IMG/VR virus record: IMGVR_UViG_3300044797_000094 | Coordinates: 12,388 to 76,387 of that record | Source: a virus | Strand: one strand, 5' to 3' | DNA: 64,000 nt | Position numbers and translations under genes: made by a program | Shown here: positions 32 to 3,000 of the stretch, piece by piece | How positions within the stretch are numbered: the stretch's first letter is position 1 | Layout: the number at the start of each line of letters is the position of its first letter | The notes under the pieces: generated by a model | The model's database searches: none | What the model was told of the DNA's origin: nothing | Seen by the model: the letters and a program-made list of their open reading frames with translations, nothing else

Positions 32-3000
32 GTGCGTCACTTCCGGCATTTCTCGTACGTCGCAATCCACCAGATCGCGCAGCAGTTGTCGTCAGCGACA
101 GTGACGGCGTTCGCGGACGAAGATAATCAATGGGACAATCAGTCGCGTAGAAAGTCTCTGCGGGTGAAATTCGGCAGTCTCGATCGATATAAATCCATCT
201 ACGGAAAAGAGGACGACACATCAACCAAGGCGTTAAATTCCAGTCATGCATTGATGAAGCTGCTGGCCAAGCCGAACCCGTGGGAGTCCGGATACGACTT
301 TCGATATCGGCAAACAATCCAAATCAGGCTCACTGGCGCATGCTACATTTGGAACGTGCCAAGTCAATTGCGAACGCCTGACGCTCCGAATGGCGTGCCG
401 TGCCAGCGATTCGTCATCCCAACGGCGGCCGTCACGCCGATGATGCCAACGGCGGAGTTGCCCTATGGCGGATTTCTCGTTCAGCCGTATTGCTCTCGGT
501 ACGCTCCGATCGACGAGGACAGCGGATATGTCCGTGGCTCACCTGGCTGGATGCGGCTTCTTGGCCGAGTCGTCGATGCCCGAGAAATCCAGAAGATCGG
601 CTATCCTCATCCTTTGTGGCTCGATGACTGGCAGAGTCCAATTGCGGCCGGTGATGCGTGGGTCGATATGGAAGAGGCCGTAAATCGAGCGAGGACGGCA
701 AGTACACTGAATGGCGTTGACCCGTCATTGGTCTGGGAGCTGCCGCCAAACATCAAATTGTCGCCAGACATGATGGACAGGACGCAATCGGCAATCCAGA
801 AAAAGTATGGCGGTCCATATAATCAGAGTCGAGTTTTGGTGACGGAAAGCGGAACGAAAGTCACGCCAACTTCCGGCGTCCCGAAGGACATGTGCTATCC
901 AGAGGGATTCCAGGACGTCAAAACGGCGATTCTCTCGCTTCATGGGACGCCGCCAGTCGCGGTCGCGATGCAAGAACCTGGGGCGTACGCGTCGTACATC
1001 GCGTCCCTGAAAGCGTGGAACCACGCGACGATTAATCCACTCTGCGAGAAATTTGGAGAATCCGACACGGCTCATCTCGCTCCATTCTTCGGGGAAGGTT
1101 TGACTGTTGAATACGAACCAAAAAGTATCCAAGATCCGGACAACGATCTAAAGCTTTTGACGATCCTGGCATCCACTAAAAAGGTCATCAGAGTCAACGA
1201 GCTTCGCGCCAAATGCGACATGGAGCCGCTGGAAGGACCGGAAGGCGATGCATTCGTCAATGACGACCCGGTTCCAGGAATGCCGCAAGCGAAGCCAAAT
1301 GGCGTGAATTTGGGCCGTCCGGACGCGGAAGCGTTGAAGCCGATAGTCAAGCCCGCTGAACCGACCACGCCATTCGAACGCGACGACGGGAACAAGTCAC
1401 TTTTGGCGGCATTGGAAGGATTCCGCGAAGAGGACGAGGAATTCGTCCAGCGAAAACTCGGATCGCTGATCGAGAAAGCGGTTGCGGCGAAGCTGAAATC
1501 GCTGGAGCCCGGCGAAGAACCGCGAAAGTACGCGTCGACTCAATTCAATCTGCCGGACGAACTGGCCGATCAAGTACGGAAAATGGGCCAGAGAATCGAC
1601 CTTGACGACTTGGCGGAAGACGGACTGGAGGATGAGCCTCACGTGACAATCCTTTATGGACTCACGGAATCCAGCCCCCAATCCGTCAAGCGAGCGTTGT
1701 CGGGCTTCCCTGCTGGTCGGATAGAACTTGGAATGTCGTCTCTGTTCGCGGCGAACGGAACGGAAGCGAGTCGAGGCGGTCCACAATTCGACGTCCTGAA
1801 GCTAGACGTTGGCGGCGATTACATCCATCGAATCCACGATCGACTCGCCGACAAATGCGACTACGAAGTCAGTTGGCCGCTCTACGTGCCACACGTCACG
1901 ATCGGATACCTAAGGCCCGGACGAGGCAGAAAATACGTCGGCATGACGGACGTCGAAGGCGAAACATTCCTTGCCGACAAAATGACGTTCTCGAATCAGC
2001 AAAAAGACGTGTCGGTGATTCGGCTGCAACCCCCAGTCAAATCCCGCCAGTCCATCATCGAGCGTCAATTGGCTCATTCCAACGGCAACGGACGAACGAA
2101 TGAATGGCACGGAAAAGCGTACGATCCATCGGAGGCGAGGGATGAAAGCGGAGAATGGACGGGGGGGGCTTCGCAACCTGATTCTAAGAAGCCCAATAAG
2201 CCGTCAAAAAACGCTGCGATCTGCCAGATGACCGGGCTGCCGTTCGAAGGTCGCGGGAAGAACCATCCAAAGCTGCGAGAAGTGCTTGACGACGCGATGA
2301 AGGATGGCGCCAGGAATCAGGTGATTGAAGCGATTAAGGACGCTAAAAACCGTGGAACGAACAACATTGAGGATTTTGTCCGCATCGCCAACGAGGCGAT
2401 TGGAAAAGGCAAGGAAGATCGACGTCAGGATCGCCGCGAGCAAGTCGAATTGGAGGATGATAGGCGTCGCGAATCACGGGAACGCGACGATCTAAATCGC
2501 AAACTACGCGCCGCTGGATATCGTTGGTCGAAAGAGGGAAATCAAAATTGGCGTGAAACGCCGGAGCAAACTCCGGAATCCCACTTCGAATCCAAATGGG
2601 TGCTTCGTAATCATCAAGGGGATGTCGTTTCGCTTGATGATGCCAAAAAAGAAATAGCATCCAACGAAAAGTCACTCGGCATGTCAACAGGCGTCGGCGA
2701 CGACGGCGGCTTCGCGGTCAAGCCGGAACTGCCGGGCGAACCAAGCAACGAACAGCTCAGAACCCTCTACGGAAACTGTCCGTTCTGTTCTGGCGAAGTC
2801 ACAGGTCGCGATTCCGATCGAATGACTGACACGTGCGATCAAGGTCACTCCTATCCATCGAAGCTGTCAATATTCGATCGACCGTCCGAAGGCGACGTCG
2901 CAACAAGCGCTGTGAATGACGGTCCAATGGGGAACCTGAATGGATTCGCCGATCCATCTGAGAAATCCAACGATCTGATCGACAATACGGAATTCGGGGC

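Follow-up and report, generated by a model that had tools for sequence, protein, structure and literature searches.

A copy of the capsid maturation junction within a portal-polyvalent fusion protein as a candidate prohead protease site for cargo release

Why does a phage portal protein carry, far downstream of its portal domain, a copy of the stretch in which its own capsid protein is predicted to be matured? The question is raised by the 76,387-bp virus record of an uncultured phage with 96 predicted proteins in its genome (IMG/VR record IMGVR_UViG_3300044797_000094), of which positions 12388-76387, a stretch of 64,000 nucleotides (nt), were analyzed here (the window, to whose numbering all positions below refer). 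The window opens within the gene of P0004, a portal-polyvalent fusion of 1454 aa (1..4210, plus strand) that starts 154 nt upstream of the window; positions 2-4210 (+) hold the 3' part of this gene, the translation of which includes ...NEKSLGMSTGVGDDGGFAVKPEL.... There, nt 2669-2728 (+) encode K942-E961, K-S-L-G-M-S-T-G-V-G-D-D-G-G-F-A-V-K-P-E. In the capsid gene (25566-26951), the translation of which includes ...FKTIQGMSESIGTDGGFGVIPEF..., nt 26004-26066 encode K147-E167, K-T-I-Q-G-M-S-E-S-I-G-T-D-G-G-F-G-V-I-P-E. The match had been noticed in an initial sequence-only reading, which took the portal copy for a borrowed protease-recognition or shell-docking tag serving the downstream Zn-ribbon/kinase cargo. 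The translations and the reciprocal profile matches described below bear the match out, as they do the coordinates, apart from the trivial point that the leading Glu given for the portal peptide falls 3 nt before position 2669.

Taken as a single pair, the portal and capsid proteins align by BLASTP over 33 residues at 45% identity with an expectation value (E) of 7e-4, which alone is borderline once corrected for all protein pairs in the window. Over all six frames of the window, the pattern GG[FYW].[VILM].P[ED] matches only the portal and capsid sites. Hidden Markov models (HMMs) were built from the portal-type copies of other phages (ten) and from the capsid junctions of relatives, in both cases leaving out the sequences of the phage itself, and were run against its 96 proteins. 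The portal-type HMM found the portal at E 1e-11 and the capsid protein at E 2.2e-9, with the next match at 0.85; the capsid-junction HMM found the capsid protein at E 1.7e-18 and the portal at E 6.5e-7, with the next match at 0.076. Because these reciprocal matches are confined to the two proteins, the similarity is not due to chance. Identical residues use the same codon at only three of nine positions in this phage and at five of 13 in G006, a complete 105.6-kb phage. Selection on the protein is thus indicated, with no recent DNA repeat, and recent gene conversion or DNA duplication was rejected on the same ground.

The capsid protein is a clear member of the HK97 family, scoring 139 bits with PF05065 (cutoff 24.2; E 2e-40) and 173 bits with TIGR01554 (cutoff 27.5; E 9e-51; residues 117-446). 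Its coiled-coil N-terminus of ~147 aa, the predicted scaffold (delta) domain (25566..26006, +), has K-S-hydrophobic sites at 25638-25655, 25839-25853 and 25905-25922, and is followed by the mature domain (26007..26951, +), which has none. The shared stretch (26004..26066, +) sits at the boundary. Within the N-terminal half, no stretch is better conserved among 20-odd relatives than [AT]-[IV]-Q-G-M-S-E-x-[IV]-G-x-D-G-G-F-x-V-x-P-E-F, with an invariant Lys 3-4 residues ahead of G-M-S. In HK97 gp5 (AF069529), which reads ...K-T-F-N-K-S-L-G-S-D-A-D-S-A-G-S-L-I-Q-P..., the mature N-terminus is S104 (PMC5701804), and MAFFT aligns K99-T-F-N-K103|S104 of gp5 to K147-T-I-Q-G151|M152 of the capsid protein. 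Matches of the capsid protein to cultured phages by tblastn begin at residues 151-153. The AlphaFold2 (AF2) model has a predicted local distance difference test score (pLDDT) below 50 at residues 144-161, followed by a short strand (161-163) and the N-arm helix (166-178); in Prohead 1 of phage D3, the first ~24 N-arm residues are disordered, which was proposed to expose the cleavage site (PMC12749128). On the strength of the alignment to S104, the tblastn starts and the AF2 flexibility, the shared stretch is the predicted maturation junction, between scaffold domain and N-arm, together with the flexible residues that open the N-arm. The earlier expectation that the mature N-arm begins here also agrees with the cover by TIGR01554. 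The portal copy starts with K-S-L-G, the same residues as at the HK97 cleavage site K103|S-L-G. Among capsid relatives, only G006 has the junction M-K-A-L-G-M-S (L073:1429-2799), without the Q and with the spacing of the portal-type K-S-L-G-M-S.

The portal-type element recurs well beyond P0004. We found 11 copies in ~10 proteins, namely P0004-P0009, P0019, P0031, P0034 (two copies) and the portal of G006, with the consensus K-S-L-G-M-S-x3-G-x-D-G-G-F-[AT]-[VI], then loosely P and E. Conservation in relatives, on which the sequence-only reading depended, was thus confirmed, and in proteins whose portal identity is only 30-44% and whose motif flanks are unalignable. P0005, found by a word-based search, is 42% identical in its portal and has R-K-S-L-G-M-S-G-E-I-G-S-D-G-G-F-A-V-K-P-E-L directly after the 2H domain, without a 210-residue domain found in P0004. 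A profile of the motif plus the adjacent Zn ribbon gave 1055 matches among 1.84 billion representative proteins, nearly all of which took in just the Zn ribbon; matches that extended over the motif were confined to P0004-P0009, P0019, P0031 and P0034. Three motif-bearing proteins are available together with their capsid genes, in the IMG/VR records G001, G002 and G006. Scanning viral contigs with the motif-plus-ribbon stretch alone gave no match, and with the three-row alignment A1 gave G001 and G002 only. The degenerate DNA pattern K-x-L-G-M-x6-D-G-G-F gave only G001, G002 and G006 plus two chance matches in viral contigs, and chance matches only in 185,579 species genomes. A metagenome scan added one stand-alone ribbon protein, and a word-based search for shorter motif-bearing proteins found none.

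The carriers share a layout: a portal, then 2H and/or InPase, the motif, usually a Zn ribbon, and variable cargo, which downstream of the motif is a kinase (P0004), topoisomerase IB (Topo IB; P0006), a zincin (P0007) or a ParB-like domain (P0005). The motif always lies at domain boundaries, in linkers between enzyme domains, and is absent from the related portals without distal cargo (G003, G004 and G005). The portal context proposed at first holds for the portal fusions, but the motif is not portal-bound: P0019 and P0031 have no portal domain and start in the K-S-L linker that follows the portal in P0004. Similarly, the Zn ribbon follows 10-30 residues after the motif in 9/11 copies, but the motif is not ribbon-bound, since copy 1 of P0034 has no ribbon after it. 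Conversely, the motif is missing from over 1000 proteins that have the ribbon alone (the stand-alone L064 protein is one of them), and in the tandem second module of P0004 the ribbon is kept and the motif eroded. In an AF2 model of the module, made from the shallow three-row A1 alignment, the ribbon is folded (pLDDT 70-80) and the motif is a coil at ~50 with no secondary structure, so both the portal and the capsid copy are predicted to be flexible. Considered in its own right, the Zn ribbon (C-P-x-C-G...R-E-R-R...G-N...C...G-H-x-Y-P-S) is a small domain of wide occurrence, present in ~1000 proteins (L064:866-1273 is an example); it is often the N-terminus of short stand-alone proteins and was matched by no Pfam model.

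If the copy is a cleavage site, a protease is needed to cut it. The candidate is encoded at 24072..25508 (+), directly upstream of the capsid gene at 25566 and in the same order in relatives, and joins a predicted prohead protease to an acidic, coiled-coil, scaffold-like tail. It was recognized by a partial match to NCBIfam NF045541 (E 3.5e-8), by PHROG matches and by hhalign, which against HK97 gp4 gave E 0.0059 at a probability of 6% and pairs H84 with H65 and S142 with S114. H84 (within 24312-24326) and S142 (within 24489-24506), both in a conserved N-terminal protease domain, are invariant in the protease alignment A4, as is K205-S-L, with which that domain ends (24681-24701); a second K-S-L lies at 25320-25340. 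No Pfam match was obtained even at E 10, none was found in PDB sequences, and BLASTP against HK97 gp4 gave none.

The Lys-Ser sites of these proteins form a pattern of their own. We compared counts of K-S-[LMIVF] with composition-preserving shuffles. Across this set of related sequences, the delta domains of 10 relatives have 24 sites (2.2 expected, ~11-fold), eight protease-scaffold proteins have 30 (5.2 expected, ~6-fold) and the mature capsid domains have none (2.2 expected). No dipeptide is more over-represented than KS in the delta and protease-scaffold sets (z 7.7 and 8.6); in the mature domain, KS is rarer than expected. In the portal fusion, six K-S-[LMIVF] sites were counted where 1.6 are expected (P 0.005), at residues 103, 116, 426, 517, 551 and 942. 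In HK97, K-S occurs four times in delta, including the mapped site, not at all in mature gp5, and four times in the gp4 tail. As judged by sequence, K-S-hydrophobic is a signature of the clade's predicted protease substrates.

The reading that we favor, with moderate confidence, is that the portal peptide is a mimic of the capsid junction that is cut by the HK97-type prohead protease, freeing the Zn-ribbon/kinase cargo for ejection. The copy would comprise the last residues of the scaffold (delta) domain and the first ~20 of the mature N-arm, set in a flexible linker of the portal fusion. Portal C-termini face the capsid interior, so a C-terminal extension would share the prohead lumen with the protease. 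The protease may recognize the portal copy as it does the capsid junction, with the cut probably falling after the invariant Lys, at K942|S943, by analogy to K103|S104-L-G in HK97. Such a cut would separate the twelve-fold portal ring from the Zn ribbon, the kinase and further cargo; too big to pass the shell, the freed cargo would lie loose in the head and later exit with the DNA. The 2H domain may be released at two more conserved Lys-Ser sites, K517 and K551. We infer the cleavage, the scissile bond, the packaging and the ejection alike, and one argument is functional: an enzyme that acts in the host presumably cannot remain tethered to the portal. Of the two roles suggested at the outset, protease recognition is favored by the junction position, the K-S-L-G start, the flexible linker and the K-S substrate signature, and docking was left unsupported.

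Several observations weigh against this interpretation. Membership of the protease in the HK97 (S78) family is likely but weak by sequence, because the Pfam and PDB sequence searches were silent, and the K-S counts, drawn from related sequences, are a pattern and not independent tests. The capsid junction itself is K-[AT]-[IV]-Q-G-M-S in most relatives, not K-S-L-G-M-S, an offset of one residue. The L068 portal fusion has cargo but no junction motif, and a P-R-D-D-D-G-K/R-W-T tag instead; other junctions in these polyproteins likewise bear different tags (P-R-D-x-x-G-K-W-T). In P0008 the motif precedes only a Zn ribbon and ~50 residues. Moreover, ~18 residues C-terminal to the presumed scissile bond are conserved, more than protease subsites usually need, which hints at a second function. 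One such function would be for the N-terminus created by cleavage, S-L-G-M-S...D-G-G-F-x-V, to take the place of a capsid N-arm in shell-subunit sites, for example the empty ones at the portal vertex, where a penton is missing. This would explain the conservation past the scissile bond and, if true, capsid mimicry would both free and position the effector cargo, at twelve copies per head; we regard it as an unlikely addition.

Other explanations of the same similarity must be weighed against cleavage and release. The copy could be a shell-docking tag, an N-arm surrogate that, with or without cleavage, binds the E-loop/P-domain of neighboring subunits, the scaffold or the protease, and so holds the cargo at the inner shell or close about the portal vertex, which lacks the N-arms of a penton. 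Conservation does run through G-x-D-G-G-F-x-V-(x)-P/E, which are mature N-arm residues in the capsid protein, and N-arms make inter-capsomer contacts in mature HK97-like heads (PMC12749128, PMC5701804). Moreover, the two copies of one genome resemble each other, at 13/15 compared residues in G006 (L-G-M-S...F-x-V) and with G-A-D-G-G-F-T-V in both copies of G001, which suggests that they co-evolve. However, a same-genome pairing test over four genomes was not significant (2/24 permutations reach the observed score), and the shared stretch falls on residues 144-161, for which flexibility is predicted in the capsid protein, and fades where the structured N-arm starts: the I-P-E-F helix (166-178), invariant in capsid proteins, is kept only loosely in portal copies. 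A tethered kinase or topoisomerase, moreover, could not reach the host. Docking is thus doubtful in our judgment, if the least so of the alternatives. An uncut recruitment site, with the copy binding the protease or delta domains to incorporate the fusion at the nucleating vertex or to concentrate the protease, would have the same sequence features as a substrate site, and prohead assembly is nucleated at the portal (PMC12749128). Yet the cargo-free portals of close relatives presumably assemble normally without the motif, and P0019 and P0031 have the motif but no portal domain, so that recruitment seems improbable to us.

It has also to be asked whether the motif might belong to the Zn ribbon, as a regulatory or folding leader that came to resemble the capsid junction by convergence on a Gly/Asp-rich flexible peptide. 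The frequency of ribbons close behind the motif and the tandem duplication of the module in P0004 speak for such a leader. Against it stand the ribbonless copy 1 of P0034, the ~1000 ribbon-only proteins including L064, the second P0004 module that lost the motif and kept the ribbon, and AF2, which does not pack the motif on the ribbon. The portal copies, moreover, have the clade-specific G-M-S form of the capsid junction and not a generic form, and we consider a ribbon leader quite improbable. As to chance similarity or a functionless recent DNA duplication, the single-pair BLASTP value is indeed modest given all protein pairs in the window, but the reciprocal HMM values (E 2e-9 and 7e-7), the 11 conserved copies in divergent proteins and the differing codons leave this explanation next to no credit.

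P0004 as a whole is a polyvalent protein in the sense of Iyer et al. (2017), with at least two unrelated effector domains: portal, 2H, Zn ribbons and kinase. Its Pfam matches are Phage_portal (E 3e-26), 2_5_RNA_ligase2 (2H) and PI3_PI4_kinase (E 1.3e-7). The portal domain (PF04860; 215..1213, +) is 42-60% identical to the portals of P0005-P0009, G001, G002 and G006. A linker helix (1391..1513, +) follows between two Lys-Ser sites, K517-S-L and K551-S-L, which are invariant columns in an otherwise variable region of the seven-sequence alignment A2 and could be further sites of cutting by the protease. Next come the 2H phosphoesterase domain (1525..2030, +) with two HxT motifs (1640-1660 and 1892-1912), and then the portal-type copy at 2669..2728 and Zn ribbon 1 (CPFC...C..GH.YPS; 2768..2860, +). 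The degenerate second copy of the module (2930..3097, +), with the eroded motif GNLNGFADPSE and Zn ribbon 2, was recognized by BLASTP against the motif-plus-ribbon stretch of P0005, and the module profile matched P0004 over two stretches. The PI3/4-kinase-like cargo domain (3450..4207, +) matches PF00454 at 32.2 bits (cutoff 27.1) and has DRHLGN at 3839-3856. Relatives of P0004 add InPase (PF18823), LPD1 (PF18796), Topo IB, zincin and GNAT domains; portal-2H fusions are among the architectures reported by Iyer et al. (PMC5512222).

Other short elements were noted in these fusions. R-R-K-S-L-R at 146-163 (P0004 residues 101-106) lies near the N-terminus, ~20 residues ahead of the start of the Pfam portal domain, with R102 and K103 invariant across the portals of P0004 and related fusions; the portal N-terminus could be trimmed there. 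A repeated small module, W-I-T-[LI]-x-P-H-G...H-[VI]-x-I-D-x-x-G-x-I-x-x-G-P (3185-3271), precedes successive cargo segments; it has three copies in the G006 portal fusion (L069:9848-16579), occurs also in P0009, P0019 and the second open reading frame (ORF) of L068 (2534-3685), and has no Pfam match. Another linker tag, approximated by E/P-x-R-[AD]-x-x-G-[KE]-W-T-x-G-G (2129-2167), stands after modules in portal, MuF and cargo proteins, among them the L068 portal fusion, P0034, P0005 and the L003 MuF-like ORF (2645-4093). In P0034, a cargo domain Y-H-G-S-H...F...Y-L-T-P-D (residues ~925-1045) lies between the two junction copies, and in the L068 portal fusion (ORF 3-2585) the Y-H-G-S-H domain sits between two P-R-D-D-D-G-K/R-W-T tags; with linker tags on either side in both proteins, the domain is a swappable module, and it may be an ADP-ribosyltransferase. 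Finally, the portal gene is ~20 kb from the protease-capsid pair, with many ORFs in between (4231-24071), including those for a topoisomerase IB and a MuF-like protein, an unusual layout for an HK97-like head module.

Should the portal copy be cut, it would provide a processing rule for polyvalent virion proteins, whose maturation has so far been ascribed to built-in metallopeptidases: K|S-hydrophobic, with the full junction copy as the strongest site. It would also be a second natural substrate, beyond the capsid protein, from which to read how an HK97-type protease chooses its final site, a poorly defined specificity. Each virion would carry exactly twelve copies of an anti-host enzyme set, tethered to the portal and then released at maturation, and the same tether-and-release could serve for loading proteins into phage heads. 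The motif is, in addition, a sequence marker for such cargo in metagenomes.

How does this arrangement compare with known systems? In our literature searches, no report emerged of a portal-cargo fusion that bears a copy of an HK97-type capsid junction, and a string search for G-G-Y-L-V-P-type motifs found none among the papers searched. Portals are trimmed by the head protease in lambda (gpB), P2 (gpQ) and T5 (pb7), as short terminal trims and not as release of enzyme cargo, and to our knowledge no similarity of those sites to a capsid junction has been reported. What is shared with HK97 gp5 and gp4 is a K|S-L-G junction with a Gly-rich stretch behind it that closes on a hydrophobic residue and P, and the restriction of K-S sites to the delta domain and protease tail (PMC5701804 for the gp5 site). 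However, the known HK97 substrates are only the capsid protein and the protease, and its portal is a plain 424 aa with no cargo and no junction copy, whereas in the present phage the junction is duplicated into a second protein. Encapsulin cargo-loading peptides resemble the portal copy in that a short peptide brings enzymes inside an HK97-fold shell, but they are C-terminal, uncleaved and unlike the shell protein, whereas the portal copy is internal and mimics the N-arm junction of the shell protein; a peptide of the encapsulin type was rejected, as the motif is internal with 490 residues downstream.

The domain repertoire is that of the polyvalent proteins of Iyer et al., in which portal or MuF is fused to 2H, InPase, LPD1, zincin, Topo IB and kinase domains. 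The passages of PMC5512222 located by term search propose processing by zincin-like metallopeptidase domains inside the polyprotein, and hold neither a capsid-like junction motif nor processing by a prohead protease. A shared cleavage code is also reported for T4 gp21, phiKZ gp175 and SPN3US gp245: a single head protease processes the capsid protein together with many packaged proteins, recognizing one motif in all of them, and the cargo is ejected later (PMC9026906, PMC5694885, PMC10052503). Those systems differ in using T4-type proteases, three-residue codes (L/I-x-E; S/A/G-x-E) and targeting by N-terminal propeptides. A T4-type capsid targeting sequence was rejected here, because the motif is internal (residue 942/1454) and lacks L/I-x-E, and the protease resembles the HK97 type. 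The present phage has instead an internal copy, ~20 residues long, of the whole junction, a portal fusion and a probable HK97-type protease, the last weakly matched by sequence. Motifs shared by capsid and cargo for a common protease are thus already known from T4, phiKZ and SPN3US; the new element is the long, near-complete copy of the junction within a portal-cargo fusion.

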